A stretch of 63,793 nt of DNA from Bacillota bacterium (GCA_021803575.1 JAJZLH010000005.1:1-63793); one strand, 5' to 3'. Positions 1 to 49,913 are shown, counted from the stretch's first letter. Notes: a model not told the origin generated them from the letters alone. Made by a program: numbers and translations.

Positions 1-1100
1 CCTTGGCCGAAGACACGACGGAGAACCAGGCGTCAGGGTGCTCTGGCGCGGCATGCGAACCCTCGTCACCATCACCCAAACATGGGAGCTCTTTCGCCCA
101 CCACCGACTTATGGGTAATGATCAGGTGTACTATGGCCCTGACCTGCCTTTGTCCCTATGTAAGTATAGAATGCGCTCTCGCTGCATACTGGCCCACCCA
201 GTGATACCGCGTTCCGCTTGCGCCATGCAGGTCAATCCTGCACCGGCTCTCCCAACCGAGCCATCTCCTGGTCCACGTCTCCTCATGTTTCCCAGGAACC
301 AGGTGCTATTCACCGGCATCAGCCGCGTTTCCCACTGCAGATGAATCCCATTGGACAAGCGCATCCAGGACTTTGCACTCTGCCCTAGTGAGAGAATCGC
401 GGGGGGGATCCTACCAGCCCACGCACCAGCCTCGCTTGGTGCCAACAAACCACACTCCTCACGGCCTCGCAGACTGCAGACGCGGGATTCTTGCGAGCCA
501 CCCCATTTACCTTGTTGGGCCAACGGGTTCGATCGATCCACAAATAACCTGGACCTGCATCAACACCTTTCCAGACCTGGGCGGACAGAAGGCTGAGAAG
601 CATGCCCAGGTCCGTACCCTTGAGATGTTGCTAGTCAGTCAATGGTGTCGATGATCACCGGTCCAGCAGCGCGGCCCGTCGACTCATCGGCTAGTCTGAT
701 CCAGAATCTTGTGAGGGCATCGTCGCGGGCGGAATGACACCTTTAGGGGGTATCAAGGGGTAACCCACATCGGACTGATAGGCACTGCCCGGTGGGGCAG
801 CGTGTGCCTTCTCGCTGGGTGTACACTATATAGACTGTTTGCAACGTTCTTGTGAATCTCTCTAGCTCATCACCACGCTGGATTCCCCTTCGGCTCTGGT
901 GAGGCCGCCATCAAGCCGTCCTGGTAGAGACAAAACATGTCATACAAGCTCGGGGCGGGGCATGACTGTGCGGGCCACAGGCTGACGGTCAAGGGACTCT
1001 GGTGTGACGACGGTCTGGGTTCGCTCATGAGCGCTGTCTCCTCGTTCGCGCAACCTCACCGGTTGGCTTCTTCGTTTACCTCACCTCCGCCAGGCTCAGC

Positions 1101-3413
1101 TTATCGATCCGTGTCGAGCGTATTACTAGACCCCGGCAATCGCGCCTTGTCGAACTCCTGGAGGCGGGCTACCTCTAAGTCATCGAGCATTACGCGATGC
1201 GCCAGCGTCACTAACTGGCTGAACCTTCTATGCATTTGGACAAACATCTCATCAGCGAGCACGTGTATTTCAGCCCCAAGAGAGTAGTCTGCCGGACGCG
1301 TTCGGGCCTCCTCTCGCACCGCTCTCCGACATATCAGTTCCGCAACAATCTCTGCTAGCAGCACCCGAAACATGGGATTGCTCTGACCAGGAAAATCGGG
1401 CTCTACGCCAACGTAACGTTTCAGGGACTTATGCAAGCCGGATATTACGATGGATCGCTTATCTCCCTCCTCTCTCCACACGGCACGAAAGTCTCCGAAG
1501 GTTTCTGCTTCAAGGCGTATCTCAAGGGGCAACCCGTAGGGCTCGTCCTTCTGCTTGACAACTATTTGAGTTGTAGCCCTGTGTAGGCCCACCTCGGCGG
1601 TAAGCTTTGCGGAGCCCCCCAGGATGAGTCCTTGTACTGTTACGAGTGCTCTGCAGTAGTTCGTTCCGGCCACCTGACTGAATTTGCTCACTTGACGCAC
1701 AGCAACTGCGCCCTTTCCGGTAGTGATTGCAACCTTGGGCACTGTTCCTTGTGCGGACCCAGCTGTAGGTACGTACAGTTCGCAAGACCTGCTTCTCGTA
1801 AGTCCTACCGTGTACTGCTTATGCCCAAACTCCAGATCCTCTTGGAACACTCTCTCGCGTACGTCTGTGGTTATGTCGACTAGGGCGTTGGCCTCGGGCA
1901 ACGCTGGAGACACAGCGGAGATCGTCAAATTCTCGGCTGGTGCGAGCCCGCAGACCCGGAATTGCGCTATGAATGTGTCCTCCCGGCTCGCGTGTCGGCG
2001 CAGGCTGAAGGACCGGGATGCCCGGACCACCGACGGGTCCGAGGTCGTGACCTCAACGTTCATGCCCTCAGTCGCACCGCTGTTCGCTGTGGCGTAGTAC
2101 GTAAAGGTTCGCTCGATGCCTACTCGGAGTGTAGCGAACGTAGGATAGATCATGGTCCCACTCTTATGCACGGCATCCGAATCTATGAAGCCACCCTGGT
2201 CATCCTCGTCACCTTCTCCAAGGTGCTCCTTTAGGAATCTCCCCGCCACTCTGGCTAGTCGGTTCAGGCGTTCCTGGGTCTCCTTCGTAGCCATTTCCGA
2301 CCGTCCCGGTGACTTGTCTCCCTCCCGACTCACGAGGTCTCGGAGAACGGATCTGGGGCGCTCCATAAGAGCCTGCGCGAAAGGGTGCCTGCGATCGAGA
2401 CCCTGGACTCTGTTGGGGTCAACGATGAGAGTCGGATTCTCGACCAAAGGCTCCACACCGGCCTCAAGTAACTCTTCATATTGGTAAAGCAGAGTGTCGA
2501 TGTATTCACACTCGAGCCGGCCCCAGAATCGACGGACCTGCGGGTTATTCTTGAGGTCATCTGCCAACAAGGAACACTCGTGAATCGCACGAGCTCCCTT
2601 GATCACGATGCCGAACTGCTCAAATCTTCTCCTTCCTTCCGGTAGCAGATCCGGTGCACGCCATATCCGCAACCGCGCCCTTGCTCCGGAATACCCTGGC
2701 ACGTCGTACGCTTCGTCGGCGACTAGCTCACCTGCTGGTGGCCGATACAATAGTGTCACGGGCTTCCCCTCCCCAAGTCGCCTCAGTCGAACCTTGGTAG
2801 GCGAAGCTTCGGACATGAGATCGCGAAGCGCGAAGTGAGAGGGAATCTCGAGCTTCAGCGTCCGCTCCTGGGGAAGAGCCACGGTCGGACGCAAGTAGAG
2901 GGTGGCTCGAGTTCCCGATTCACTTCCATCACGAGCCCAATCCTCCGGTAGCCGCGTGTCTCGCGCCTCCAGGATAAACTGTGAATGCGTCGTCAGGCGA
3001 CACCGTGAGTACTTCCCGCGACTGACGGACTCATAAACCAGATCCCCAAGGGCCGTGCAGTCCTTTGAGCCTCTCCCCATATATCCCCGATTGCCGCGCT
3101 CACTGGAGAGCCTACCCGGTTCCGCAAAGCAGCGAACCATCGCGGCGGCATCCATGCCTTCTGCGCGATCGCTGACGACGATTTCCGAGGCTCGCGCCTT
3201 CCCGCGTCTTGCGTACTCAATGAGTATATCTCCGCCATCTTGCGCCCGGCGCCTGTGCATGAACAATCTGTTGTAGGAGTCATCGGAATTTGTTATAAGC
3301 TCCACGAGCGCGTCATATACGTCGTTTACCGCATAGCCTCTTATGTGGTGGAGCATGCGCTTGGTCGGCCTCAAGTCGATGGCCTGGCCGACGGTTACTC
3401 GAAGTTCACTCAT
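1101..3413 (-). CDS. GHKL-superfamily (HATPase_c_3 / MORC-paraMORC-like) ATPase, about 770 aa, with beta-rich middle region and helical C-terminus
   Basis: Track ORF is 1101..3455. I moved the start to ATG 3413 (MSELRV), which overlaps the stop of the upstream ORF by 8 nt (ATGAGTGA). The N-terminal ~150 aa carries Bergerat-fold motifs: N-box VELITNSDDS, G1-like SDRAEGMD and G2-like GYMGRGSKD. The remainder has no motif I recognise, though two beta-rich segments look Ig-like. G+C is lower than in host genes. Confidence 0.7.
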   Translation of the reverse strand: MSELRVTVGQAIDLRPTKRMLHHIRGYAVNDVYDALVELITNSDDSYNRLFMHRRRAQDGGDILIEYARRGKARASEIVVSDRAEGMDAAAMVRCFAEPGRLSSERGNRGYMGRGSKDCTALGDLVYESVSRGKYSRCRLTTHSQFILEARDTRLPEDWARDGSESGTRATLYLRPTVALPQERTLKLEIPSHFALRDLMSEASPTKVRLRRLGEGKPVTLLYRPPAGELVADEAYDVPGYSGARARLRIWRAPDLLPEGRRRFEQFGIVIKGARAIHECSLLADDLKNNPQVRRFWGRLECEYIDTLLYQYEELLEAGVEPLVENPTLIVDPNRVQGLDRRHPFAQALMERPRSVLRDLVSREGDKSPGRSEMATKETQERLNRLARVAGRFLKEHLGEGDEDDQGGFIDSDAVHKSGTMIYPTFATLRVGIERTFTYYATANSGATEGMNVEVTTSDPSVVRASRSFSLRRHASREDTFIAQFRVCGLAPAENLTISAVSPALPEANALVDITTDVRERVFQEDLEFGHKQYTVGLTRSRSCELYVPTAGSAQGTVPKVAITTGKGAVAVRQVSKFSQVAGTNYCRALVTVQGLILGGSAKLTAEVGLHRATTQIVVKQKDEPYGLPLEIRLEAETFGDFRAVWREEGDKRSIVISGLHKSLKRYVGVEPDFPGQSNPMFRVLLAEIVAELICRRAVREEARTRPADYSLGAEIHVLADEMFVQMHRRFSQLVTLAHRVMLDDLEVARLQEFDKARLPGSSNTLDTDR

Positions 3414-4047
3414 TGCTGGTCCTCCCTTCGCAGAGAAAACGATCCCGGCAAGCATTCAAGAACGCTTTAACCTCCTCAGACTTTGCTGCTTCAGCAACGG
3501 CCAATAGTAGATCGACCTTAGTCGTCATCACTTCCCGTGGCACGTCGGGCGAGCAATTGAGAAGATCGTAGAACCTGTACGCACTGTGTCCCAATCCCCT
3601 CCCAGACAGGTACTGTCTATATAGCTCGTGTCTCTCTAACCTGCCTAGGATGCGCCGACCTTCCCGCCCCTCGTTCTCAGGAAGGGGGATCCTCGGCACC
3701 TCGCTCAGACTTTGCACACTGCTCCACACCAAGACTCCCTGACTTGTAAGCCTCCAACCATCCTTGGAGACATCGAGTGACCAGGAACCCACGACTAACG
3801 CGCCATTCCGGGGGCGCCTGGCATCCTCGAGCGCGACCTTGGCGATGTACTTATCTGGCCACTGTCTCGCGCGGTACTCCGGGAGCGACCAGGAAAATTC
3901 CGCCGGAGCTATCGCATAACACCCAGTGGCTATGTGCTCGCTCAGAACCCGTCGTGTTGCACCTCCCAGGGACCCGAGTACGTACACGACGATCTCCATA
4001 TGAGATAGTCGTTTCGGGAGTCTCGCCACTGCGTTTTCTCCTCCCAT
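3406..4047 (-). CDS. Hypothetical protein with N-terminal Mrr_N-like winged helix; partner of the GHKL ATPase
   Basis: 213-aa ORF whose stop overlaps the ATPase start. The segment VYVLGSLGGATRRVLSEHIA...GWRLTSQG resembles the Mrr_N-type wHTH pattern (from memory of the family). The C-terminal half is helical and unassigned. An alternative GTG start at 4029 lies 8-10 nt after GGAGGAG, so the true N-terminus is uncertain. Confidence 0.55.
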   Translation of the reverse strand: MGGENAVARLPKRLSHMEIVVYVLGSLGGATRRVLSEHIATGCYAIAPAEFSWSLPEYRARQWPDKYIAKVALEDARRPRNGALVVGSWSLDVSKDGWRLTSQGVLVWSSVQSLSEVPRIPLPENEGREGRRILGRLERHELYRQYLSGRGLGHSAYRFYDLLNCSPDVPREVMTTKVDLLLAVAEAAKSEEVKAFLNACRDRFLCEGRTSNE

Positions 4048-5207
4048 CTCCCACGATGAGATCTCTTCAGCGCTCCGTCAGGGAGCAAGAAATGGAAGCA
4101 CACCGCGAAGCAGGTCATCGATCGACTCGAGTTTGGCGGTCGGACTCGACTGTCTCGTCTTCGCAGCCTTCGCCGATCCTGTTTACAACTGGGTTTCCCA
4201 GAGTCCGTATTCACCCAGGCACAAGTGGATCCTGCGCCACGTCCGCGGCTGGCTCCTGTCGACCCACTGGAGGGGCGGCTGTTTGATCTCGGATCCATGG
4301 TCAAGGGTGCTCATCTGTACACCTATGGTGCGACGTGCTCAGTCCCGGCGGCCACCGAACCGCTCTGGTAAAGTTGGATGGGCGGCACCGAGCGGATTTA
4401 TACCAGTTTGGCAGACGGGCGGGACACCGAGGGTCGCGCTCAGACAGACGCTGTGTAGTGAATAGAAGTCGCGGGTAAAGGTGGGGCACACCAGTTTGGG
4501 TGGGTGGTCGTAGCAGGATGATAGCGCTGGTGGTGTTGGATGCCGTTCCACCACTCCCTCAAGCGCGGGCCTTCGGGGGTGAGCGCGTTGCGCTTTTCAC
4601 CGCAATCGGAGAACGAGGCGGCAAAGCGTACGCAATACCGCTGGCCATCGACACCTTTGAAGGCTCTGGGGCCGCGACCAGGAAGCAGGTCATCAGAAAC
4701 GCCAACTCGAACCGACGGTCCCTATAGTCTCGACTCGAGACATTTGCCCGGTAATGCCGCTCGCTATCTGCGGACTGTGGCAGCTTCGCTCTACCGGGCC
4801 CCGCGGGCCGTCACATGGAGATTCCCTGGCCACTCGAGCGGTGGGATGCTGGTCTGGGGACAGTCATCAGAACCTCTTGGCCCCGGAATGAGCACTGCTC
4901 CTCGCGGTGCGCGACCCTCGTTCCTCGAGATGACTCGAACGGTACCGTGAATCATCGGCTCCGAAGTGCGGACACGGTGGGGCCAAGTGTCGGCCAGTTG
5001 GACACCTTCCTGTTGTCGGCCCGCGGAAAGCATCGGTCTCCCAGAGCCACATCGCCTAAGTCACAGTAACCGTGTTAGCTATCCACGGTCTCAAGTTGCA
5101 GGCAATCGTCTCACTTCTTGACCAGGACAAGCTTGGTGTGCCTATCATGGCTGGCTAGGTAGCAGCCGGACACGGGCTCCGCATGGCTTGTGAGAGGGGG
5201 TGACACT

Positions 5208-5423
5208 ATGAAGGTTGCAATCAAGACCTTATCTGTTCAGATGGACATAAAGAACAACGGCGTAGAGTTCGCTATATCTGAAACGAAGAACAAGAAGGAC
5301 AAGCACCTGGGTGACCTCTATGTGACCAGGGCGAACCTCATCTGGTGCGAGGGCAAGACCACCAAGGATAACGGGAAGAAGGTCTCGTGGGAAAAGTTCC
5401 GAGCCTGGATGCTGGAGCAGTAA
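5208..5423 (+). CDS. Small Lys-rich hypothetical protein (71 aa)
   Basis: ATG 5208 is preceded by GAGAGGGGG (5192..5200). This is the lowest-GC stretch of the window, about 42% in the one 60-nt line I counted. The sequence MKVAIKTLSVQMDIKNNGVEF... has no family I recognise. Confidence 0.45.
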   Translation: MKVAIKTLSVQMDIKNNGVEFAISETKNKKDKHLGDLYVTRANLIWCEGKTTKDNGKKVSWEKFRAWMLEQ

Positions 5424-5622
5424 CGAGTCGCCGCCGCCGCATGCACTGACAGTCAACAGGCCCCGGTCAAGTGGTCCAGCGTCACGGCTGCGGCCATGGG
5501 AGTTTATTCGACGCTGTTCATTGACTGATCCGGTTCCTACTCCAAGTTCCACCGCGAGTCTTCCCGTGCCCGTTGGACCTTTGCAATGCCCTTCCCAGCC
5601 TCACCTCAGGTATAGGTTTGGC

Positions 5623-6735
5623 TCACGTCTTGATCCGTAGAGCCTCGGCGACTGCTGCCGTTGCCGCAAGCACCTCCTGGTTTCGGGCGTTCGGCGTCGT
5701 CTTGCCAGGGCTAATGAATCCGGTTTCGCTCCAGAGGCGCGCAGCCGGTGAGAAGTCTATCCTTTCTAGGGCGCGCGCATAACTGAGCAGGCTGCGATCA
5801 GACCCGTCCTCACGCAGTCTGATCCAGAAAGCGCCAGCCAAAGCCCTCAACGTAGTGGATGAGAACAAGATACTGCGGCTTCGCAGAGCATCTACTGATG
5901 TGCCATTTCTGGCCCTGGTAAATTCCGGGCGCGCTTCCGCCAATGTTCCGAAGAGTTGCACTCCGCGCTCGTAGATGGCATCCTCGCTGTACTGGGCTGC
6001 GTTGCGCACACGGCCGGTAGGCCCAACTTGAAGTCGTTTCAGAGATTCCCACACGGATCCTAAGGTGTACCACTTGTCGCTGCCGGCGGCGACCCGACTT
6101 GACTCTAGTTCAACCACTCCCTTGAGGAACGGGTGGTCAGCCGCTAAGCGTTGAGCAGCGCGGGCAAATGGATCTCGGGAGTCGAACCGCACATTGAGCG
6201 CCTTGGCAACCACCTTGGGTGTGGCGTTCATGTCACTAAACATCTGGCGGCGCTTAGACACATCAGGCTCTACATAGACGACGATGGCGGTGTGATCTTG
6301 ACTTAGCTTCGGGTCCTCCTCAATCGCCTCATTCAGCCCTTTCCGGCGATGCTGACCATCGAGGGAGCGTAGGTTCGTCCCTAATGGAATGGTCAATAGA
6401 CCAAGACTCTCCTCTTGGCCAGTCGGTTCAAAGTAGCAGTCCCGATCGACTGCATAGATGATGGCACCGAGGCAATAGTCGGAGGGGTTTTCCACCAAGT
6501 ATCGGGCGATGTCGTGGGCGTGCCTAGGGTCCAGTTGACGCTGAGACCTCTCATCCGGTGGATCCATGTTTACGGTAAAAAAGTTATTCAACACGCTGTT
6601 CTCTACTAGGAGATGATACATGACCCGATCACCCTGGACGCCCCGAAGCGCCGGAAACGTGAGACCCGTCTTGACACTCACCACGCACCACCAACCTTCC
6701 TCGAGCCGTCGTGGCTCTGACCCGAATCCTACCAT
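5623..6735 (-). CDS. DGQHR-domain protein (DndB-like, ParB/Srx superfamily)
   Basis: The literal DGQHR motif is present (LRSLDGQHRRKGL). An upstream QR motif (ERSQRQLDPRHAHDIARYL) and an N-terminal FPALRGVQGDRVMY are typical of DndB-like proteins. The start may instead be GTG 6681 or 6678, about 10 nt after GAGGAAGG. Confidence 0.8.
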   Translation of the reverse strand: MVGFGSEPRRLEEGWWCVVSVKTGLTFPALRGVQGDRVMYHLLVENSVLNNFFTVNMDPPDERSQRQLDPRHAHDIARYLVENPSDYCLGAIIYAVDRDCYFEPTGQEESLGLLTIPLGTNLRSLDGQHRRKGLNEAIEEDPKLSQDHTAIVVYVEPDVSKRRQMFSDMNATPKVVAKALNVRFDSRDPFARAAQRLAADHPFLKGVVELESSRVAAGSDKWYTLGSVWESLKRLQVGPTGRVRNAAQYSEDAIYERGVQLFGTLAEARPEFTRARNGTSVDALRSRSILFSSTTLRALAGAFWIRLREDGSDRSLLSYARALERIDFSPAARLWSETGFISPGKTTPNARNQEVLAATAAVAEALRIKT

Positions 6736-7284
6736 AACGTTATCGTATCTGTAAAGTTTTTCTTTTTATCTTTCCGCGCACCGGCCCTCCCGCTCCCCGC
6801 TCGTCGGCTGGAGCCGTTGACACGGCCGACTTCTCGGCGTCACCTCTGAACCCCCGAGTGAAGAGCGCCCGGTACCCCTAGACAGACGATATGACATCCA
6901 CCGGAAGATCGTCTCGGTGGGCGAGCTGAAGGGTGCTGTGTGCAGCACCACGCTGCCCTTAGGCAACGAGAGCCGGAGCCGTCGCGATCCTCGATCAATC
7001 CCCACTGCAGGCGGGGCGGAGCCCCAAACATGAGACAGACCAAAGGGCCAGGCAACAGGCTCCTCTCGACGAGTCGTGGCGGTTAAATCGAGCCGGCTGG
7101 TCGCAGGCGAGATCAGCCGCCAAGGTGGTCTCTGCGTCCCAACTTTGGCCAGGTGTGGCCTCTCTGGTGGCTTGCGCAGACTTGTGGTCGGCGACCTACC
7201 GCCACACCGCTCGATCCCCAGAGGCCTCATCTGCGGGCTCGCTGGCAGGCAGGGTGCCACAGTGCGCCGCGGCTGCTGGCCGAG

Positions 7285-7767
7285 ATGCGCGTCAAGGGTT
7301 ACACAGGCGATCTCACCACCATCAAGGATGGGGTGTCTCAGATGCGCGGCCGACTCTGCCTGCCACACCGCCCACGGACTCCCAGAGGCGTTGCCTGGTT
7401 GCTGATCGCGAGGACAGAGCTGCTCCGCCTCGACGAACAAAGACGGCCGAAGTCGATCTTGGGGCACAATGAGCAGCTCCACCAACTATACGACCTCGCC
7501 CAGGAGTCCTGGTCGTTGGTCCGCGACCAGCGGGCCGATCTTCCGGACGACGGCATGGCCAGGGCCCGAGCCTGCCCGCTGCCCCCGGTGAGAGCCTTCG
7601 TTGCCGGTCTGGAGCTGGCCCTCGCGGCGGTCAGAGCCGGACTGTCCCTGCCCTGGCGCCAGGGTCCAGTGGAGGGTGTCATCCGTTGTCCGAAGCCGGT
7701 CAAGCGCCAGAGCTGTGACCGCGTATCGATCGCCCATGTGCGCATCGGCCTGCTCACCGGCGCCTGA
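7285..7767 (+). pseudogene. ISL3-family transposase C-terminal fragment (decayed)
   Basis: Three segments follow the order of the C-terminal third of ISL3 transposases as I recall the family consensus: MRVKGYTGDLTTIKDGVSQMR, then RGVAWLLIAR...LRLDEQ, then VRAFVAGLELALAAVRAGLSLPWRQGPVEGVIRCPKPVKRQ. The usual KRQMYGRA tail is degenerate here and there is no DDE core upstream. This segment has higher G+C than the surrounding island. Confidence 0.6.
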
Positions 7768-8013
7768 TCCACAACAGGCGCAGACGCGCCCGAGCAATCC
7801 CTGACTGCCATCATCAAATGTGCGCGAGAACACGTAACCTGACGGAAGTCGCCGGACGAAGAGCATAGTTCCACCCCTGCGGTGGAGAGAGCACCGAAGC
7901 CCTGGTAAGGTGGAGGTGCTCAGATCCGATCAGATGACAGTATGGGAGATCAGGGAGATGCGGGCGAAGGAGATGACGGTTAGGGACATCGTCCCGGAGT
8001 GGTAACCGACAAT

Positions 8014-8084: not shown

Positions 8085-10805
8085 CTACTCTCGAGCCGCG
8101 CCCCTAACAGCGGTCAATGTCTTCAGTGACTCGTATATATCGCGTCGTAAGTGTCCGATACCAAACGCCTGCAACACTACTGCATCGAAGTGCGCCCGGT
8201 CTTGGCTCTCCAATTCTTGCGGCACGCCCAACACGGCCCTCTCGAGCAGTGGTTGGAACGCGTCTACAATACGTCCGCGGTCTGTTCGCGAAACTCGACC
8301 AGGATCCAACACGTGAAAGTGTCTAGCAAGCTTGCTGGCATTAAGATCTAGGACGCCCAGGCCGCGGCCGAATCCGGACGCTTCGATCAGGAATATGCCA
8401 ACAATGGAATTCATCAAGGCGTGGCACAGGTCAAGGTCTATCTCATCGGTCTGTCTACCGGTGAACCGGATGAATCTCTGGCTCACGAATGATCTCTCAC
8501 GGAGGCGATACACGCAAAGTCGGCGATCGGGATTGAGTGGAATGACGAGATCCGCGAGCGTGTCCGCTCTCATCTCGTACCACTCACATCCTGGTCGGGC
8601 TAGGGCCTCGGGTAATGGTCGCCCAGTGCCATTCGTGCCACCTCGAAACCGTGCGATCCACGCAAGCGTACCGCTCATACCGAGATTCGTCAGTGTGGAC
8701 ACATCGTCCGAGCAGCAAAAGGCCTCCGAGGTGGCTGACTCAACCAGTCTTGTCAGGTTGTGTGGTGACTTCAGTACAGGCCGTATATATCTCTGCTCGA
8801 TTCCATGTCCAGCTGCAGGATAAAACATTTGGTCCCAACCTCGACGCTCTCCTCTGTGGATCTCGAACAGCGTGTGAGCCGGGGTAAGACTAGAGCAGGC
8901 TTCGTCAACCCAGTGTAAGTCCGCAAAGCAAGCGTTCCACTCGATGCCAACGTCCCAAAAGTTTGACAACTCAGAACTTGTATACTCCTGCCGCACAAAG
9001 TTTCCATCAGACGTATCCCCGAGCCACATCGTATCCGCGAGGTGTTCAACGCCACCCGGTAGAGACTCCCAATGTTCTATGTTCACCGTGGTCAAGTCGA
9101 AAAAAACCTTTTCCTCGGGTGAGGCTGGCTCGTCCCGCTTCTCCAGAATGAGCATCGTTGTCACCACATCTGTTGCAGAGAACCAGCGGCCTTTGCCTGA
9201 TGTCACCACCTCAAGAACGTTAAATCTGTTCATCAGCACCTCCCTGAACCTTGCGCCCCACTCTGTTCCTAGCCAAGAGTTAGAGCAGAGCACCCCCATT
9301 CGCCCGTTCACTTCCAGTAGGTCACCCAGCTTGACGATCAAGTAGGCATAGAGGTCGGACGTCGGTGAAAGGACTTGGCGCAGTTCGTCAGAGAGCGGGT
9401 TCAGTTGCTGTATGTCCTCGAATCGAACAAACGGCAAATTCGAGATGACTGCGTGCATCAGCGGAAGACTTCGGGTAACGTGCGTTCCGCTCTCCGGATC
9501 GATGAAGTTAATGCGCTGGCCGGCAGTCAGGGTAAGCGCGTCACGTTGGAAGGTCTGGACAACCTTCCTCATGCCCTTGGGATCTGACAGCGCGATCGAG
9601 CAAAGTTGCAGGGGAAACGCGAACTTGTCGCTTGCCCAGGTACCTTCAAGGGCACGCGTCACCTCCACTCCGACGCTACGCTTCAAGTCATACGCCGCTC
9701 GAGCAATCGTGCCTGAACCGCAGCACGGATCAATTACAGGCCCCGTTCGATCCTCAATCGCAAGACGAACGAGTAATTCCGCGAGTGGCCTCGGGGTCGC
9801 GAATTGCCCAGCTAGTCTCTTTCGTGAGTTGGTAAGAAGTCTCTCAAGGACAAGTTGAAAAGTCTCCTGTTTGAGTGAGCCAATGTTTACGTCATTCAGG
9901 AAGGCGTTCAGTTCAACGAGTCCGCCCCACGTCTCTGAGTCCACATAATGCTGACCTGGTGCCGGCCGAAAGACATTCATAAAGTCACATGACTCTGAGA
10001 TCCCGTTGAAGATTTCCACCGCTGTGTCGACTGAGACGCCGGGCACTATCGACTCGACACGCCGGGCGGCGTTGTGGAACCGCTTCATGTAGTGCGCGAA
10101 CAAGATTCTGTTCATCCAGTTGAGTAGGTTCACGCGCGCTATCGCCTGGGAGGGCTCGCAACCGGGATGCTCCCACTTGTTCACAAGCCACCATACGTTG
10201 AGCTCGGCCGAAAACGTGGCATCTCGTTGCACCGCGCGTGTCACCTCGTCTGCAAGTCGGTGCTCGAAGTGGCTCACATAGTCCACAAGCAGGTTGTCGC
10301 TTACTGCCACTTCCGGACGGGTACCGTGAACTGTCCCATATTCGAGAAGTTCGTTGACGCGGTCGATGATCCGGCGTGCAAGTACGGCCCAAACTCCTCT
10401 GTGCGACTCGACATCAGCCCGACGACGGATGTCACCAGACGTCCATGTGTCGCAGCAGCGGAAGGCTCCCGATTCCTCCTTCACATATAGCGCGGCGTCC
10501 TTCGCGTTCCAGACAACGTAGCTATCCAAACCCAGCCGTTGTGCCTTCCGCTCCGCACCCTCGAGCAGGGCACGATCGTTGATTGGCGTCTCTGGCATTT
10601 TAAGTTCCCACCCCTGCTGAACCACGGTACCGCCGCTGTCTCCGAACAGCAGTACATCTGGAAAGAGGCTGTGGGACACTCCCGTCAGCGTATACTCGCC
10701 GCCAGCCCGCCTAACTGCACGGAACCGCTCCGAGCAGTATCGATTGATTTCTACTATGACATCGATAGCCCAAGAGCGCTCATTGTATCGAGGTAACAGT
10801 GCCAT
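8085..10805 (-). CDS. Type IIG restriction-modification enzyme (N-terminal PD-(D/E)XK nuclease fused to gamma-class N6-adenine methyltransferase and C-terminal specificity region)
   Basis: Start set to ATG 10805 (MALLPRY), preceded by GAGGAAGG. The nuclease motif is FPD(50)...E(67)LK. The methyltransferase region shows GQFATPRPLAELLV, motif I DPCCGSGT and motif IV SNLPF. A long C-terminal region is typical of Eco57I/MmeI-like enzymes. Confidence 0.8.
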   Translation of the reverse strand: MALLPRYNERSWAIDVIVEINRYCSERFRAVRRAGGEYTLTGVSHSLFPDVLLFGDSGGTVVQQGWELKMPETPINDRALLEGAERKAQRLGLDSYVVWNAKDAALYVKEESGAFRCCDTWTSGDIRRRADVESHRGVWAVLARRIIDRVNELLEYGTVHGTRPEVAVSDNLLVDYVSHFEHRLADEVTRAVQRDATFSAELNVWWLVNKWEHPGCEPSQAIARVNLLNWMNRILFAHYMKRFHNAARRVESIVPGVSVDTAVEIFNGISESCDFMNVFRPAPGQHYVDSETWGGLVELNAFLNDVNIGSLKQETFQLVLERLLTNSRKRLAGQFATPRPLAELLVRLAIEDRTGPVIDPCCGSGTIARAAYDLKRSVGVEVTRALEGTWASDKFAFPLQLCSIALSDPKGMRKVVQTFQRDALTLTAGQRINFIDPESGTHVTRSLPLMHAVISNLPFVRFEDIQQLNPLSDELRQVLSPTSDLYAYLIVKLGDLLEVNGRMGVLCSNSWLGTEWGARFREVLMNRFNVLEVVTSGKGRWFSATDVVTTMLILEKRDEPASPEEKVFFDLTTVNIEHWESLPGGVEHLADTMWLGDTSDGNFVRQEYTSSELSNFWDVGIEWNACFADLHWVDEACSSLTPAHTLFEIHRGERRGWDQMFYPAAGHGIEQRYIRPVLKSPHNLTRLVESATSEAFCCSDDVSTLTNLGMSGTLAWIARFRGGTNGTGRPLPEALARPGCEWYEMRADTLADLVIPLNPDRRLCVYRLRERSFVSQRFIRFTGRQTDEIDLDLCHALMNSIVGIFLIEASGFGRGLGVLDLNASKLARHFHVLDPGRVSRTDRGRIVDAFQPLLERAVLGVPQELESQDRAHFDAVVLQAFGIGHLRRDIYESLKTLTAVRGAARE

Positions 10806-10821
10806 AGCCGCTGGCCTTCCT

Positions 10822-11763
10822 CTACTCTTCTTGTTCCTGTTGGAGGGCTCGGTGAACACTGATGCGACCGATTCGCGACCCTAGCTCGGGAATCCAAGCC
10901 AGCCTCTCCTGAGCGAGCTGTACATAGTCGATCGCGTCACGCTTGAAGCGATAAACATCCTCATTCTTCTCGATCCCGCAAAAGGCTCGGTCTTCCAGGG
11001 CGGCACCGACCAAAAAACTACCGCTACCAAAGGCGTTGTCCAACACGAGGTCGCCAGGGTTCGAATAGGTTCGGACAAGATAGCGAGCCAACTCTACCGG
11101 CTTCTGTGTAGGGTGCCAAACTGGACCTTCGCTCTCGGCAGTCTTGAAATAGATTACATCGGTCGGATACCGCTCACCGGCACTTTTCACATGTCTCGGA
11201 CGAAAGTCGCCGTAGCTACCCGACAACTGATCCTTTCGGACACCCTTGTCGTATCCCTCCCCGTCGCCCATTTGAGGGTGATAGGTCGGCGACTGGCGAT
11301 AAAAGACACAAATGTCCTCATGCTTTCGAAGTGGTTGTTTCTTCGCATTGAGAAAGTTCGTCGGCTTAGACTTCTCCCAGACCAGCTTATACTTGAAGTA
11401 CCTCTCGTTCGAGAGGATTACTTTGGCTGTAAACAGGCCCTGTGCTGTCAGGACAATGGCCGCGTTTTCTTTTGCAATGCGGTTATATGCCTTCCACAGC
11501 CTACCTAAGTCAATGGTGCTATCCCACTTATTCTGGGTGGTGCCATACGGTAGGTCACATAGCACCATATCCACACAGGAGTCCGGGAATGACTCCAAAA
11601 CGTCGAGGCAGTCACCTTCAAAGATCGCGTTACGGACATCGAGCTCTGTGTAGGGCCTTCTCCCTACCAGCCCCGAAGTCGACACGCGAGGCACATCGTC
11701 GGGGTCGCTTGCTGTCCCCACCTGCACCTGGGCCATGGTCTCCCCGAGGTCCGCCATCTGCAT
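10822..11763 (-). CDS. Beta-class DNA methyltransferase (N6_N4_Mtase family; DPPY-type, probably m6A)
   Basis: Motif IV DLPYG precedes motif I FGSGS (LDNAFGSGSF), which is the beta-class order. The gene lies immediately upstream of the Type IIG gene with a 16-nt gap. The start is uncertain: ATG 11763, ATG 11757, or ATG 11736 preceded by GGGGAG. Confidence 0.8.
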   Translation of the reverse strand: MQMADLGETMAQVQVGTASDPDDVPRVSTSGLVGRRPYTELDVRNAIFEGDCLDVLESFPDSCVDMVLCDLPYGTTQNKWDSTIDLGRLWKAYNRIAKENAAIVLTAQGLFTAKVILSNERYFKYKLVWEKSKPTNFLNAKKQPLRKHEDICVFYRQSPTYHPQMGDGEGYDKGVRKDQLSGSYGDFRPRHVKSAGERYPTDVIYFKTAESEGPVWHPTQKPVELARYLVRTYSNPGDLVLDNAFGSGSFLVGAALEDRAFCGIEKNEDVYRFKRDAIDYVQLAQERLAWIPELGSRIGRISVHRALQQEQEE

Positions 11764-12047
11764 ACACCCCGCGTCAATAGATCCACCTAACGGTTCTCTT
11801 CGGCATGCAACGCTCCTTGTGGAAACTGTTCCCAGACTTGTTCGTAAGTCGATGTACCGTGCGCCCGGAAGCAGGCGTCGCCTCGATGGCGACATGTGGG
11901 CCCGACGGCGTAGAGTTGGCGCGTAGGCCGACCCCCATTGCATCTACTGCCCCTCCAGGCGCGCGGGGAATCCACCAGTGGCCTCCGGGCGTTGCCCCGG
12001 ACCGTTGATGAACCGACTTCCTAGGAAAAGCCCCGCTTCCATTCGAA

Positions 12048-12122
12048 TGGTGGGCACGGCAGGTTTCGAACCTGCGACCTCTTGAATGTGAGTCAAGCGC
12101 TCTACCCCTGAGCTACGCGCCC
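12048..12122 (-). tRNA. tRNA-Val (anticodon CAC), CCA encoded
   Basis: Manual cloverleaf: GGGCGCG TA GCTC AGGGGTA GAGC G CTTGA CTCACAT TCAAG AGGTC GCAGG TTCGAAA CCTGC CGTGCCC A CCA. Confidence 0.9.
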
Positions 12123-12133
12123 CTATGTGATTG

Positions 12134-12208
12134 TGGTGGGCCCAGCAGGGGTCGAACCTGCGACCAACCGGTTATGAGCCGGCAGCTCTACCGCTGAGCT
12201 ATGGGCCC
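12134..12208 (-). tRNA. tRNA with CAT anticodon (elongator Met or lysidine-modified Ile2), CCA encoded
   Basis: Manual cloverleaf: GGGCCCA TA GCTC AGCGGTA GAGC T GCCGG CTCATAA CCGGT TGGTC GCAGG TTCGACC CCTGC TGGGCCC A CCA. The 1:72 pair is G:C and the anticodon stem has no GGG/CCC, so it is not an initiator. Confidence 0.85.
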
Positions 12209-12221
12209 ACCAAGACCAAAC

Positions 12222-12296
12222 TGGCTCCTCGAGTAGGACTCGAACCTACAACCCTCCGGTTAACAGCCGGATGCTCTACCATTGAGCTATCGAGGA
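12222..12296 (-). tRNA. tRNA-Asn (anticodon GTT), CCA encoded
   Basis: Manual cloverleaf: TCCTCGA TA GCTC AATGGTA GAGC A TCCGG CTGTTAA CCGGA GGGTT GTAGG TTCGAGT CCTAC TCGAGGA G CCA. Confidence 0.9.
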
Positions 12297-12317
12297 ATCA
12301 CCCCAGGACACGGCTTG

Positions 12318-12347
12318 ATGGTACGGGATGGCGAATCCTGGCGTCAA
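12318..12347 (-). promoter_or_regulatory. Putative sigma-70 promoter of the tRNA cluster (TTGACG-18-TACCAT)
   Basis: On the minus strand the -35 is at 12347..12342 and the -10 at 12323..12318, about 20 nt upstream of the tRNA-Asn 5' end. Confidence 0.45.
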
Positions 12348-12591
12348 GCAAACTGGCTTGACGAGACATGATCCGCACCGCTAGACTCATAAGCAGTTCC
12401 GGAACTCACTATACGGTCCCCACGATAAAGGCAAACACGTCGAAAGGCGTGGGCGCAAAACCACGGGCCTACAGCTCTTCTGAGCCACGGTAGCCGGGTT
12501 GCCGAAGGGGCACGAGGCTTGCATACAAGGTCTCTGCCATCGGCAGAGACCTTTGCGCGCGGGACCCCAGCTAGGGGTGACCCCGCCGGTG

Positions 12592-14055
12592 ATGCGCTGG
12601 CTACTCGCAGGCCTTCTTGCAGCAATGCTCCTGTATGGCCCCGCGCCCAGGCCGCTGGCTGTGCCGCCCCCTCTCGCCCCTCTGGCGGCACGGTCGACAA
12701 CCCGTACCGCTCTCCGGCCCAGGAGCAGCCAGCCTGCACCCACTCAGGCCGCCGTGGAGGGCCCGGTCGATGTCCAGCAGTCTGCCCTCCTGCCGGGAGC
12801 ACCGCTGCAGGCCAGCATCCCCGGCAATCCGGCAGACCCGGTCAGCTGGTGGCTGTCTGGCAGCCAAGGGGTCTACCCTCTGCTCGCCTCCCAGAGCACC
12901 GTCTTCGACGGAAACCTTCCCCTGGTGCTTCCCGGCGGCGAGTATACCCTCTTCTCCTGCGACAATGCCTCTTCCGCCCAGCACTGCTTCTCCAGCCCCG
13001 TGTTCGTCGCTCTGGGCGGGCTCTGGCACAGCGGCACCGACCCGTTCGCCGTCTATCAGCGGCAGGGCCTTCTCCCCCTCTTTAGCCGCGGCACCCTCGG
13101 CCAGGGGCAGACCATTGCCCTCTATGGCCAGAGCCAGCTGTCGCTGCAGGACGTCTCTTTGTTCGACGCCCTGTATGGACTGCCAGCACCTGCACTGACC
13201 ATCGTCACGCCCCAGGGATCAGCAGGCATCCCGGCCGCTGGCAGCGGCGCCGCCGGCCTGGAAGTGGCGGCCGACGTGGAGTGGGCGCACGCCCTGGCGC
13301 CCGATGCCAAGATTCTGCTCTACCTCTACCCCCCTGCGACAGACGGCGTCCTGCAGTCCGCTGACTTGGCCATCCAGGCGGGGGCCACGGCGCTCTCCAT
13401 CTCATACGGGGCGCCGATCAGCGGCTCGACCGCCAGCTGGAACGCGTCGCTGCAGCAGGATGCGACCCAGGGACTGGCCATCTTCGCCGCCTCCGGCGAC
13501 GCCGGCCAGGAGACCCCCGCCTATTGGCCCACTGCCTCGCCTGCCGTGGTCAGTGTGGGCGGCCTCTCCTACACCTCTTCTGGTACCACCTACTGGGACG
13601 GTGCCAGCGGCAAGGGCGGCTACGGCGTCTCGCTCTCCGAAGCGACGCCGGCCTGGCAGGGGCAAGCCGGCGTCACGGCGGGGCGCACGTTTCCGGATGT
13701 CAGCATGCTCGCCTCGCACGTGCCGGTGGTGGTGGGCGGGCAACTGGTCACAGCCTCCGGAACGAGCTTCGCCGCTCCGCAGTGGGCGGCGGTCTGGGCC
13801 TTGCTCCAGCAGTCGTACGCGGCGTCCCATCACGGGGCTCAGCTGACGGCCGCGCCCGGCCCAACGCTCTACGCCGTGGCGCTCCACCAATCAGCCACAG
13901 CGGCGGCCTTCCCCGCCGCTGTGGGGCCTGGTCCCCACTTCTCTGCCCAGACCGGCTGGGGCGCTCCCGACGTCCAGCGGCTGATTCAAGCCGTGGATGC
14001 CCTCGCACAGCCCGCACCGAGCGGGCTGCCCTCCGTTTCCGGAGGGCAGCCCTAG
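12592..14055 (+). CDS. Secreted sedolisin-type serine peptidase (MEROPS S53, kumamolisin-like)
   Basis: Motifs present: SGTSFAAPQWAA (catalytic Ser), LEVAADVEWAHALAP (the E-x3-D pair) and AASGDAGQ (oxyanion Asp). Start set to ATG 12592 (MRWLLAGLLAAMLL signal-like peptide). The track ORF starts at TTG 12499. Confidence 0.75.
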   Translation: MRWLLAGLLAAMLLYGPAPRPLAVPPPLAPLAARSTTRTALRPRSSQPAPTQAAVEGPVDVQQSALLPGAPLQASIPGNPADPVSWWLSGSQGVYPLLASQSTVFDGNLPLVLPGGEYTLFSCDNASSAQHCFSSPVFVALGGLWHSGTDPFAVYQRQGLLPLFSRGTLGQGQTIALYGQSQLSLQDVSLFDALYGLPAPALTIVTPQGSAGIPAAGSGAAGLEVAADVEWAHALAPDAKILLYLYPPATDGVLQSADLAIQAGATALSISYGAPISGSTASWNASLQQDATQGLAIFAASGDAGQETPAYWPTASPAVVSVGGLSYTSSGTTYWDGASGKGGYGVSLSEATPAWQGQAGVTAGRTFPDVSMLASHVPVVVGGQLVTASGTSFAAPQWAAVWALLQQSYAASHHGAQLTAAPGPTLYAVALHQSATAAAFPAAVGPGPHFSAQTGWGAPDVQRLIQAVDALAQPAPSGLPSVSGGQP

Positions 14056-39700: not shown

Positions 39701-40231
39701 CCGGCACAGGCGGTCATATAGCGCCGCCAGCCTGATCCTCGGCTCTTCTGCCCAGGGCTGAGGGCACTCCGGCAAGAGGTCGCCGGCATAGGCCTCGAGC
39801 GCCCGCTTGAGTTCACTCTCTCCGGCCGCCTGCCTGGCCAGCTCCTCGAACCGCGCCACGTCCACCGCCACATCGAGTTCCGCCCGCCAGCTGAGCGTCT
39901 GGACATCCGCGGCAATCAGGGCAGCGACCTCGGGCAAACGCTGGCTGAGTGCGAAGAGGGCCTTTCTCAGATTGGTCGCAGCCTGACTGGACAGACTGTC
40001 CGGCCACAGCGCCTCTGCCGCCTCCGCACGCCTGAGGCCTGGGCGGCCGGCCAGGGCAAGGAGCGCCACGAGCGAGCGCACGCTCCACAGCCCTGGGTCG
40101 GGCTGGGGCTCGCCGTCCAGGCGAATGGAAAAGCCGCCGAGCAGGCGGATTTCCAAGCTGCGGTGAGGCGCACCGATCCGAGCGGCGACCTCGCCGCCCA
40201 GATGCGCCGGGGCCGGTCCGGCAGAGGCCAC
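36794..40231 (-). CDS. SARP/AfsR-like STAND regulator (OmpR-type wHTH + BTAD + P-loop NTPase + TPR array)
   Basis: N-terminal LEIRLLGGFSIRLDG...NLRKALFALSQRL, a BTAD-like helical region and the P-loop VEGESGIGKSAL. Long TPR-like repeats fill the C-terminal half. Confidence 0.75.
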   Translation of the reverse strand: MASAGPAPAHLGGEVAARIGAPHRSLEIRLLGGFSIRLDGEPQPDPGLWSVRSLVALLALAGRPGLRRAEAAEALWPDSLSSQAATNLRKALFALSQRLPEVAALIAADVQTLSWRAELDVAVDVARFEELARQAAGESELKRALEAYAGDLLPECPQPWAEEPRIRLAALYDRLCRALALLLERERRYPEALELALAVAERNPADEASWAWALRLAASAGGKEALHQVWSAVEHRFARAFSDEPSELLRQDYQRLLALAAEPPADGEISFVGRTRQWASLRAAWDLSRRGQFGLVWVEGESGIGKSALAGEFARWVAAQGVNARIGHASGVPGPSLEAVVSALGSGPPLPALAPPWAEELGALLAPGSMARPDAPAVAPLSEGSRLRRLMAAVEAMVADAPCVWVLDDLQDADGDSWDWIRLAARHLSRLPALLVAVSRSDRRTVARRRELFEAVGSAVACQLIVVGPLSDAEAASLVRQVAAPPPQVEAELLAIAQGSPLHLLEAARLWLLEKESGGSELGLGPTMQATLARRLAHLPSVERRLAEALALLGRPADPRWLIACTKGARLSSVEDLIQTRIVTADEGGRLSFHHSALAEAVLRQIAPRRRQQLAGLLAGALAESGAGLGDQGRLWEEAGEKERAREAYRQLAAQAERACLLEEAAFARARLLALSPPAEQPEIALGRADMLYQAGLAAEAEAAYRQTIQLAVSEGALAIAASGRLGLARILSLGGDVVSAQVLAEDSGEVLAAIGDERQRALALLCRGELFGLRQDFDQAEHLLGEARVLAERCGELPVAVSALNRLGDLEYERGQYAAATDSYHQARQSAERCGDLGGLLEATGSLGVVLEETGKLAAGAGYQREVVELAHSHGLSRHLCYGLNNLGACYQGAGRWAEAERLVAASLRLALDTNDMRAISVITGVLALCRAEQEDKAGGERLSDLAMALARAFPIPSYLALQICHLTDLLLDSGRLERVGPLLEEAWPVREAGTPQAAVRLELNRIRWRQASGQTSRRTAREEMAAVAGRPLAAEARALVAFRMWELSGAEADRRRALGLVSALFEYHPHVWWQRCQEALGGGRPELPDLPGLPDWLDPFAPLVQDLLPWLDAYVARHGSPRRAGPQLPPDQAGGTVPALPTA

Positions 40232-49648: not shown

Positions 49649-49913
49649 CGCCTGCTCTGGCCAAGACGCCCGGAACCCTCGGCCACGGCCATGGCGACCT
49701 CCCCTCGCTGCCGGCTGGCGGCGCCAGCATGCCTCTGGTCGGCCAGGGTGCGCCAGACTGGCTGATGCGCCCGCCTCCGCCGCCACCCTAACAGCCGCGC
49801 CTAGGCAGGGCAGTATCCAGGCAGTGCCATCGAAGTGCCATCTTTCAAGGGAGCGAGCGGGCGGGGCAACCCGCCCCGCCCGCTCTGTCACTCCCGAAGC
49901 TGTCTTTCGCTGC

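Follow-up and report, generated by a model that had tools for sequence, protein, structure and literature searches.

Positions 1,101 to 4,047 of a 63,793-nt stretch of Bacillota bacterium DNA (GCA_021803575.1, JAJZLH010000005.1:1-63793; this whole stretch is referred to as the window) hold two overlapping genes, and the question they raise is whether they constitute a defence system of a kind not yet described. A preliminary description, drawn from the sequence alone, had proposed that they encode a winged helix-turn-helix (wHTH) protein and, translationally coupled to it, a GHKL/MORC-like ATPase. The results presented here establish that the two genes, called A and B in what follows, form a tightly coupled operon. 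As judged by its sequence and predicted structure, gene B encodes a GHKL ATPase whose motifs are intact, and the comparison of homologous loci makes the pair a plausible candidate for a novel defence system.

Coupling and distribution of the gene pair

The listing of open reading frames (ORFs) in the window confirmed both genes and placed them on the minus strand, which the preliminary description had not named (Table 1). Gene A ends at a TGA codon at 3408-3406. The GTG codon at 4029 is its likelier start, rather than the ATG at 4047, because a Shine-Dalgarno sequence (GGGAGGAG) is present at 4044-4037, 7 nt 5' of the GTG, and because public gene calls favour it, the resulting 207-aa form being the protein-database entry (P0121). 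Gene B runs from ATG at 3413-3411 to TGA at 1103-1101. Its longest ORF opens at 3455, and we place the start at 3413 because the homologue alignments begin there, because a Shine-Dalgarno sequence (AAGGGAGG) lies inside gene A at 3428-3421, 7 nt 5' of this ATG, and because public calls on identical metagenome contigs use it. The proposed 8-nt overlap, ATGAGTGA (3413-3406), can be read directly in the sequence. A scan of positions 1-5700 for sigma-70 promoters returned no promoter-like site, and terminator-like sites detected by an intrinsic terminator scan of the same interval were no commoner than in shuffled sequences.

A search of 5.8 billion proteins returned 125 homologues of gene B, with E-values down to 1e-27 and identities of 29-45%, and a scan of GTDB using one genome per species identified 329 stretches encoding a gene B relative, the best 80 of which were kept. 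These homologues and relatives indicate that gene B is not a chance ORF. Homologue length is nearly constant, at ~750-780 aa, and the distribution of gene B relatives is patchy, covering more than 15 phyla and ~0.2% of GTDB species. The kept loci include members of the Acidobacteriota, Thermodesulfobacteriota, Patescibacteria, Chloroflexota, Planctomycetota and Rhodothermia/Bacteroidota, together with Gemmatimonadota, Actinomycetota, Nitrospirota, Nitrospinota and others. All 80 derive from metagenome-assembled genomes (MAGs). A family met in MAGs only falls into a blind spot of isolate-based screens, which would have missed the pair.

A single-sequence search found only six homologues of gene A and a profile search 37, all annotated as hypothetical. 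A hidden Markov model of gene A matched 38 of the best 80 GTDB loci, as well as the window and one bacterial-virus-like IMG/VR contig (L086), and in all 40 loci the match was the ORF directly 5' of gene B on the same strand. The distance from the gene A stop to the gene B start ranged from -14 to +40 nt in all those measured loci (39 of 40) that had a callable gene B start, with several ATGA overlaps. Gene B also lies directly 3' in the further gene A loci (L093-L097, L132, L149-L151 and L232-L235), and hence follows gene A on the same strand in 53 of 53 loci with an A homologue. A degenerate DNA pattern for gene A recovered 51 stretches, of which three were true A genes, each followed by gene B. 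Pairwise distances in A and in B are correlated (r = 0.86), a value reached in 0 of 2000 Mantel permutations. Together, the invariable linkage, the short gaps and the correlated distances demonstrate a tightly coupled operon; unlinked homologues in other genomes, which the preliminary description had named as grounds for abandoning its proposal, were not encountered at any A locus.

On a neighbour-joining tree, the loci with both genes are basal and paraphyletic, and a B-only clade, made up of Longimicrobiales, Rhodothermales and Acidobacteriota with many marine or sponge MAGs, is derived. A few A+B loci are nested within the B-only clade, which indicates that gene A was lost more than once. 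Comparison of gene B conservation between A+B loci and the B-only clade gave no signal for an A-contacting part, because the B-only clade is uniformly less diverse. In two loci, L234 (12181-14188) and L235 (3984-5991), a group II intron, with an RVT_1+GIIM ORF on the opposite strand, apparently splits gene B (717 aa) close to its 3' end, and a short B-like fragment (E 1e-9) lies beyond the intron.

Clustering of all flanking ORFs revealed no other universally conserved neighbour of the pair. In most A+B loci a gene on the same strand ends within ~100 nt of gene A, and about half of the loci have, immediately upstream, a third gene that varies in kind, so that the two-gene module of the preliminary description stands as the minimal form and not as the only one. 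Three uncharacterised types recur among the upstream genes: c2, a ~75-aa helical protein found in 11 loci (L003, L005, L007, L015, L020, L043, L072, L076 and L095-L097); c11, of ~200 aa, in seven loci (L008, L009, L039, L050, L074, L132 and L151); and c16, of ~350-410 aa, in 7-8 loci (L002, L010, L018, L026, L093, L094 and L234), the N-terminus of which we take, by eye, to be ribbon-helix-helix-like. HTH_17 proteins precede gene A in L025 and L233, and single cases comprise HARE-HTH (L006), Mrr_N (L013), methylase (L001), TIR (PDC-S35; L040), AIPR (L054), Vsr-like DUF559 (L077) and PIN (L024 and L071) proteins. Representatives of c2 (L007), c11 (L039 and L009) and c16 (L010 and L018) had no Pfam match at E ≤ 0.01, those from L007, L039 and L010 had no PADLOC match at E ≤ 0.001, and hhalign comparisons of the upstream families with gene A and with one another yielded nothing significant. 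The three types may supply the module with alternative regulators or sensors.

Remnants of c2, c11 and c16 were sought in the window at 4048-5190 and none was found; with none of the upstream families present there, the window represents the minimal two-gene form. This interval, ~1.1 kb 5' of gene A, contains no convincing gene, its called 43-aa ORF looks non-coding, and a repeat search revealed nothing remarkable; either a decayed gene or an extended leader or promoter region might account for it.

A small DNA-binding gene placed first and abutting a large one is the classic layout of type II toxin-antitoxin (TA) modules, and the order of A and B, with overlapping or abutting stop and start codons, follows it. 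The pair could therefore be read as a TA or abortive infection module, in which A would be both an autoregulatory winged-helix repressor and the antitoxin, and B a toxic ATPase that, freed when A is lost or titrated, would act through ATP depletion or indiscriminate DNA clamping and serve addiction or abortive defence instead of direct restriction. The co-evolution of A and B, the many TA and abortive infection genes among the neighbours described below (PIN, ParE, AbiEii, Fic and nucleotidyltransferases), and the lack of a recognisable restriction-type effector in either protein all fit such a module. Gene B, however, occurs without gene A in dozens of genomes, which is unexpected of an unneutralised toxin; A has 207 aa and a second domain that is itself conserved, whereas antitoxins are typically smaller and less conserved; and in about half of the loci the separate, DNA-binding-type gene upstream is itself a possible regulator. 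We consider a TA module an unlikely explanation of the pair.

Domain architecture of the two proteins

The three Bergerat motifs named in the preliminary description were located in gene B at residues 38-46 (ELITNSDDS), 82-88 (DRAEGMD) and 110-118 (GYMGRGSKD). Across 51 gene B homologues, there is no variation at E38, N42, D44, D45, D82, G86, R109, G110, R114, G115 or G167 and at least 90% conservation of T168, the four motifs of the fold corresponding to E38/N42/D45 (I), D82xxxG86 (II), G110xxxR114G115 (III) and G167-T168 (IV). In Pfam, HATPase_c_3 (PF13589) matched 38 of the 51 family members, while the best match of the window gene B itself across Pfam, NCBIfam and PADLOC was a marginal one to HATPase_c (E 0.1). 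The gene B profile matched TRAP1/Hsp90 in the PDB with an E-value of 0.0025.

An AlphaFold model of gene B, computed from 51 sequences (predicted local distance difference test, pLDDT, 86.5), was compared with the PDB using Foldseek. The first ~400-450 residues align to Hsp90/TRAP1, the GyrB 43K fragment, ParE, MORC3/4 and SMCHD1 with E-values of 4e-12 to 5e-9, probability 1.00 and target-normalised TM-scores up to 0.57. Since these alignments span both domains of GHKL+transducer modules, residues ~185-340 are assigned to an S5-type transducer, within which the S5 loops are conserved (G298-R299; N326-P327...D332-P333-x-R335...H343). The presence of an S5 domain after the GHKL domain places gene B in the GHKL+S5, 'MORC/paraMORC-like', class. 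Of the ~600 aa that the preliminary description could not assign, residues ~185-340 are thereby accounted for, and the conserved C-terminal domain described below is still without a PDB match by sequence.

Hsp90 and TRAP1 are the top PDB matches by E-value, and the layout of gene B resembles that of Hsp90, with the ATPase first, a middle domain next and helices at the C-terminus. Gene B might on these grounds be an Hsp90-like protein-remodelling ATPase and gene A a mere transcriptional regulator. Gene B is not Hsp90 proper, however. Pfam returned no HSP90 match; MORC and GyrB modules reach TM-scores just as good; the likeness in fold extends no further than the GHKL+S5 core that these proteins have in common; A, closely co-evolving with B and coupled to it near-stoichiometrically, looks like a partner and not just a regulator; and the genomic context is one of nucleic-acid conflict, not of proteostasis. 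A chaperone-like role is, in our judgement, very improbable.

In the model of gene B the transducer is followed by a helical hairpin, two beta-sandwiches (residues 420-515 and 530-620), a small beta unit (630-658) and a helical end (675-758), in agreement with the two Ig-like beta stretches and the helical tail of the preliminary description. The Ig-like region gave weak profile matches to the Big_2 domains of lambda tail protein V and of a glucanase (E 0.02-0.3), a Foldseek search of BFVD returned Big_2/Ig-like phage tail proteins (~1e-7), and the conservation profile of gene B is lowest over these domains. Conservation over residues ~630-700 equals that of the ATP motifs, and the C-terminal region harbours the invariant or near-invariant polar residues R643, H661, Y667, Q677, E688 and H739. 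By sequence, the C-terminal domain found no match in the PDB, and the C-terminal half gave weak Big_2-type matches. When a profile built from residues 408-770 was run against 1.84 billion representative proteins, it retrieved 850 matches, 189 of them below 1e-30. All full-length proteins among the top 150 of these 850 measure 700-900 aa and carry the module at ~400-760, indicating that the tail is confined to this architecture. We regard the C-terminal domain as a candidate effector and/or dimerisation domain.

The BFVD search also returned near-full-length matches to uncharacterised proteins of two giant viruses, Hokovirus (3e-34) and Yasminevirus (1e-28) (entries A0A1V0SGC9 and A0A5K0UA26). 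Five giant-virus MAG contigs (L081-L085) match the gene B profile at ~7-398 and ~628/649-746 and not over the Ig-like region, and a further one (L087) contains N-terminal B-like fragments only. The Ig-like region is thus absent or replaced in the giant-virus relatives; profile positions ~401-525 are missing in L086. The existence of giant-virus relatives without Ig-like domains indicates that these domains are dispensable and that the ATPase head and the C-terminal core are the conserved functional unit. In L082, L083 and L087 the gene B relative is preceded by a conserved gene of ~145 aa without assigned function, and further upstream lies a gene that we take, by eye, to be cyclophilin-like.

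The AlphaFold model of gene A (pLDDT 89.4) has a putative winged helix (~16-112), in which helices 16-26, 36-46 and 66-77 precede strands 85-88 and 97-100, and, after it, a helical domain (~126-209). This agrees with the winged-helix N-terminal and helical C-terminal domains of the preliminary description, whose assignment of the former to the Mrr_N type was not upheld: Mrr_N (PF14338) gave no Pfam match to gene A at E ≤ 10, and hhalign against the protein encoded in L013, a true Mrr_N match (1.5e-13), aligned 14 wing columns ('DGWRLT.G') with an E-value of 0.2. A relationship with HARE-HTH was likewise discarded after a comparison without significance. Foldseek returned weak winged-helix matches of the PadR, MarR, Rio2 and MukF types (best E 0.045), with ~100 residues superposing on the winged helices of Rio2 and BpsR at a root-mean-square deviation of 3.2-3.5 and a probability of 0.93-0.96 and with weak E-values (0.05-1.3). 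The gene A profile found nothing in the PDB.

Genomic context and proposed function

GC profile, Pfam and PADLOC agree with the preliminary description in locating the pair in an island of low guanine-plus-cytosine (GC) content, ~0.57 over positions 1-12 kb of the window against ~0.70 elsewhere, beside a restriction-modification (RM) system and a DndB-like gene. Elsewhere, by Pfam annotation, the pair occurs in diverse settings. Integrases and recombinases lie near it in L093 and a DDE transposase in L094; in L095 it belongs to an islet of just three genes, flanked by fatty-acid and NADH-dehydrogenase operons; L096 holds DNA_methylase and RE_HaeII genes, a TIR-ended protein and an integrase; L097 holds Fic, DUF2130, nucleotidyltransferase, PIN_10/DUF433 and DUF559 genes; L233 an HD/HD_assoc protein and ParE; and L234 AbiEii and a group II intron. 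Among 129 genes flanking 38 A+B loci, the most frequent assignments other than TPR were PIN (4), N6_Mtase (4) and Eco57I (3), followed by GmrSD_N, AIPR, Fic and Recombinase (2 each). In L232 a same-strand N6/N4 methylase (12254-13360) begins 1 nt past the gene B stop, and in L001 a same-strand N6/N4 DNA methylase (203-1441) overlaps the gene A ORF, which hints at possible cooperation between some variants and a modification enzyme. The patchy occurrence across more than 15 phyla, the islets between housekeeping operons and the adjoining integrases and transposases mark A and B as a co-translated operon that is horizontally mobile and most likely acts on DNA.

These genomic contexts and the sporadic cross-phylum distribution lead us to favour a role in conflict or defence, a function that we infer from neighbourhood association. 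GHKL+S5 proteins such as GyrB, MutL, Hsp90 and MORC are dimers whose N-terminal domains close on ATP and whose transducer domain senses the gamma-phosphate, and gene B keeps all the parts needed for ATP-driven N-terminal closure. We propose, with moderate confidence, that the pair is a DNA-directed conflict or defence module working as an adaptor-loaded GHKL clamp. Gene B would be a constitutive dimer, held together via its C-terminal region, and its N-terminal ATPase domains would close on ATP to form the clamp. Gene A, made in fixed proportion with B from the coupled frame, would be a DNA-binding adaptor or sensor that, in contact with B, loads or licenses the clamp on its putative target, foreign DNA. 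The output would probably be either an activity of the C-terminal domain, in which the conserved R, H, Y, Q, E and H residues could form a novel catalytic site, possibly that of a nuclease, or ATP-dependent entrapment or compaction of the DNA that silences it by blocking its replication or expression. In the same scheme the C-terminal module would serve dimerisation and perhaps provide a catalytic or ligand site, and the Ig-like domains would act as variable spacers or recognition surfaces.

Several observations weigh against the proposed clamp. No nuclease, methylase, helicase or other effector domain was detectable in A or B by domain and profile scans, and no PADLOC model matches either gene. 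DNA binding by gene A is postulated from a modelled wHTH fold that matches known ones weakly. Gene B persists without gene A in the large derived clade, where its flanks carry mostly sulfatase, phosphodiesterase, GreA-like, nucleotidyltransferase and LRR genes and little RM. The counts of defence genes flanking A+B loci are raw numbers, without a genome-wide background, and every genome with the A+B pair is a MAG. Finally, tblastn with gene B had no match in 72,556 PLSDB plasmids or 50,697 INPHARED phages, and the pair was present on only one of 2.9 million IMG/VR contigs, and hence is not typical cargo of known mobile elements.

Some of the same evidence bears on a non-immune role in DNA organisation or element maintenance, for instance through ATP-dependent compaction, silencing or segregation of the island or the chromosome, much as MORC and SMCHD1 compact chromatin, with gene A as a site-specific loader. 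The succession of GHKL-S5 head, linker, Ig-like domains and C-terminal domain, the Foldseek matches to MORC3/4 and SMCHD1 and the weak MukF-type echoes in the winged helix of A would suit such a role, as would the ordinary chromosomal contexts of the B-only clade and the occurrence of relatives in giant viruses, which need no anti-phage defence. It accords poorly with a pair that is sporadic and horizontally transferred, reaching ~0.2% of GTDB species over many phyla, that resides in small islets and in RM- and TA-rich islands typical of accessory conflict genes, and that is absent from the sequenced plasmids searched. On balance we deem this role improbable. Even outside defence, the pair would be a conserved and mobile two-protein ATPase machine present in more than 15 phyla and, in its relatives, in giant viruses.

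Taking the proposed defence clamp further, we tentatively suggest, as a possibility that we hold with some doubt, that A and B, with optional upstream genes, make up an undescribed anti-foreign-DNA system in which a wHTH protein loads a MORC/SMCHD1-like clamp, the C-terminal part being a new catalytic or entrapment domain without a known nuclease fold, and the core having also been acquired by giant viruses of eukaryotes. If this is true, the presence of the ATPase and C-terminal core in giant viruses would link bacterial and eukaryotic-virus conflict machinery.

The remainder of the window was annotated alongside the pair (Table 1). The DndB-like gene has no other dnd genes nearby and adjoins a lysine-rich 77-aa ORF (5190-5423, plus strand) without a family match. 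DndB was considered as a third partner of the pair and set aside, a tblastn search against all loci having returned only the copies of the window island and one weak match; a 'DndB fragment' upstream of gene A in L019 and L021 did not match the DndB of the window. Between DndB and the type IIG RM gene, positions 6766-7874 form a segment of GC 0.65 with long overlapping ORFs on both strands, in which public gene calls place a 233-aa and a 126-aa gene without Pfam match; the end of a plus-strand ORF at 7153-7767 resembles, by eye, what we take to be the C-terminus of an ISL3-type transposase. Identical metagenome contigs extend the island past window position 1, and this extension (L088, 13912-17564) encodes a DDE transposase of the IS4/Tn5 type and a reverse transcriptase of 696 aa, which matches the defence-associated PADLOC model RT_UG19 (1.3e-135). 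A c-di-GMP-I-GGC riboswitch aptamer (RF03167, 76.5 bits, E 2e-16) occupies 12421-12507 on the plus strand and overlaps the listed TTG start (12499) of the ORF at 12499-14055; the gene beside it is called a Peptidase_S8 protease on a longer contig. In the high-GC chromosomal part, the minus strand encodes two STAND-type NTPases with AAA_16 and MalT-like TPR domains (nSTAND1/nSTAND6; 36794-40231 and 49914-52256) and a 2923-aa ORF (41120-49891), which might be further conflict or signalling genes. The best matches of the host PPDK, from a Bacillota MAG, Desulfofundulus and Sulfobacillus, are ~61% identical, so the lineage of the host has no close representative among them.

Table 1. Features of the gene pair and of its surroundings in the window
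Feature	Coordinates	Strand	Basis and remarks
Gene A	3406..4047	-	ORF; 213 aa from ATG 4047, 207 aa from GTG 4029
Gene B	1101..3413	-	ORF; 770-aa GHKL-S5 ATPase (predicted) with Ig-like domains and conserved C-terminal domain
A/B overlap ATGAGTGA	3406..3413	-	8 nt; gene B start codon within the end of gene A
B residues 1-180, Bergerat (GHKL) ATP-binding domain	2874..3413	-	Invariant columns, PF13589 matches, Foldseek
B residues ~185-340, S5-fold transducer	2394..2861	-	Foldseek alignments of 400-450 columns; conservation
B residues ~344-418, hairpin of long antiparallel helices, either a linker or a coiled coil	2160..2384	-	Model
B residues ~420-620, two beta-sandwich (Big_2/Ig-like) domains	1554..2156	-	Model, weak profile matches, BFVD Foldseek
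B residues ~630-758, small beta unit and helical C-terminal domain	1140..1526	-	Alignments, conservation
Stand-alone DndB-like gene	5623..6735	-	PF14072, 1.7e-64; context, outside the module
Type IIG restriction-methylase	8085..10859	-	PADLOC REase_MTase_IIG 3e-252; Pfam; context
N6/N4 DNA methylase	10822..11943	-	PADLOC MTase_II 7.6e-60; Pfam; context
tRNA-Val, tRNA-Met, tRNA-Asn	12048..12296	-	ARAGORN, Rfam; border of low-GC island and ~70% GC chromosome

Comparison with known systems

As the preliminary description had surmised, the pair corresponds to no named system: A and B match zero PADLOC-DB 2.0 families at E ≤ 0.1, Pfam and NCBIfam name neither, and no description of a wHTH gene paired with a GHKL-Ig gene was found in the literature searched. 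PADLOC-DB 2.0 dates from 2023 and later systems fall outside its coverage; the libraries being limited in date, 'undescribed' here means not found in these sources.

A prediction published in 2008 placed the GHKL+S5 ATPases of the MORC/paraMORC group in restriction-like systems, and SF2 helicases typify the systems of the prokaryotic members (PMC2292703). Like paraMORC1-5, gene B combines an N-terminal GHKL domain with intact motifs, an S5 domain and a family-specific C-terminal extension, and the pair is sporadic, laterally mobile and found near DNA methylases, Vsr-type and other endonucleases and TIR proteins. It differs from them in the absence of a conserved SF2 helicase link in flank clustering, in an extension where a helical hairpin is followed by two Ig-like domains and by a conserved domain that is novel, and in its obligate 207-aa winged-helix partner, the term 'wHTH' not occurring in PMC2292703. 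Described signatures set gene B apart from paraMORC2-5. The conserved histidines H278, H343, H661 and H739 lack the conserved glutamate four residues before them that would form the S5-domain ExxxH of paraMORC2, the HxH of paraMORC5 is absent from the invariant and near-invariant columns of the C-terminal alignment, and the TIR domain of paraMORC4 is absent from gene B, a TIR gene adjoining two of ~50 loci (L040 and L096). As regards paraMORC1, gene B carries a distinct extension, and flank clustering brought out no conserved HNH or MORC neighbour.

Experimental support in the literature we found concerns the nuclease-fused paraMORC3/Shedu branch only. VcSduA, a paraMORC3 classified as Shedu type I-D, is a proven ATPase-dependent defence protein, in which a single polypeptide bears a C-terminal DUF4263 PD-(D/E)xK nuclease and the ATP-hydrolysis residues are needed for defence (PMC12137116). 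Gene B resembles it in its GHKL ATPase, clamp-like middle domain and defence setting, and differs in that, in the clade of the window copy, it always has a partner gene. An assignment of gene B to Shedu/paraMORC3 was rejected, since neither Pfam nor PADLOC reported DUF4263 or Shedu at E ≤ 0.1 and DUF4263 occurs in 0 of 51 homologues.

With MutL, the GHKL+S5 clamp of mismatch repair, by which a nuclease is licensed, gene B shares the mechanics of ATPase and transducer, and its C-terminal region could, like that of MutL, dimerise and carry a metal-dependent active site. Gene B is not MutL, however: no MutL-type Pfam family was matched, the 51 homologues matching only HATPase_c_3, HATPase_c and one Spectrin_2; no PDB MutL sequence matched gene B; and no MutS or MutH context was present. 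The endonuclease motif of MutL, DQHA(X)2E(X)4E, is not among the conserved columns of gene B.

The rIIA-type proteins of phage T4 combine a GHKL N-terminal domain with a variable C-terminal domain and act in counter-defence (PMC7824862). They match gene B in BFVD Foldseek searches (E 4e-10 to 1e-7) and resemble it in length (~700 aa), N-terminal GHKL domain, divergent C-terminus, partner gene and involvement in phage-host conflict. The likeness is essentially limited to the GHKL+S5 core, and gene B has no match in the phage genomes searched. The rIIB partner is not known as a wHTH protein.

A GHKL-fold protein and a small DNA-binding protein also occur together in defence islands as CapK/CapS, an anti-sigma-factor-type kinase and a STAS-domain repressor located upstream of immune operons (PMC13373217). 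The pair was judged not to be CapK/CapS: gene B has 770 aa and an S5 domain, gene A has no STAS match, and no conserved immune operon follows. A sensor histidine kinase was excluded as well, the ATPase of gene B lying at the extreme N-terminus, with no HisKA match and no response-regulator neighbour.

In class, gene B is paraMORC-like, combining GHKL, S5 and a family-specific tail in a mobile operon near RM genes, and among eukaryotic proteins the comparison extends to MORC and SMCHD1. The GHKL+S5 region matches MORC3/4 (1e-10 to 2e-9) and SMCHD1 (4e-9) by Foldseek, and the overall layout is similar, with a long linker or repeats joining the ATPase head to a C-terminal domain, SMCHD1 having Ig-like repeats and a dimerising hinge. 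Gene B lacks CW, chromo-like and SMC-hinge domains, its identity to these proteins is only 12-14%, and it differs from them in being a bacterial and mobile gene with a wHTH partner. MORC is a eukaryotic descendant of prokaryotic GHKL+S5 ATPases, and MORC and SMCHD1 silence transposons in eukaryotes. If the pair acts in defence, it would provide either a new effector fold or a nuclease-free immunity based on ATP-driven clamping or silencing of foreign DNA, and the latter would mirror the silencing of eukaryotic transposons by MORC and SMCHD1.

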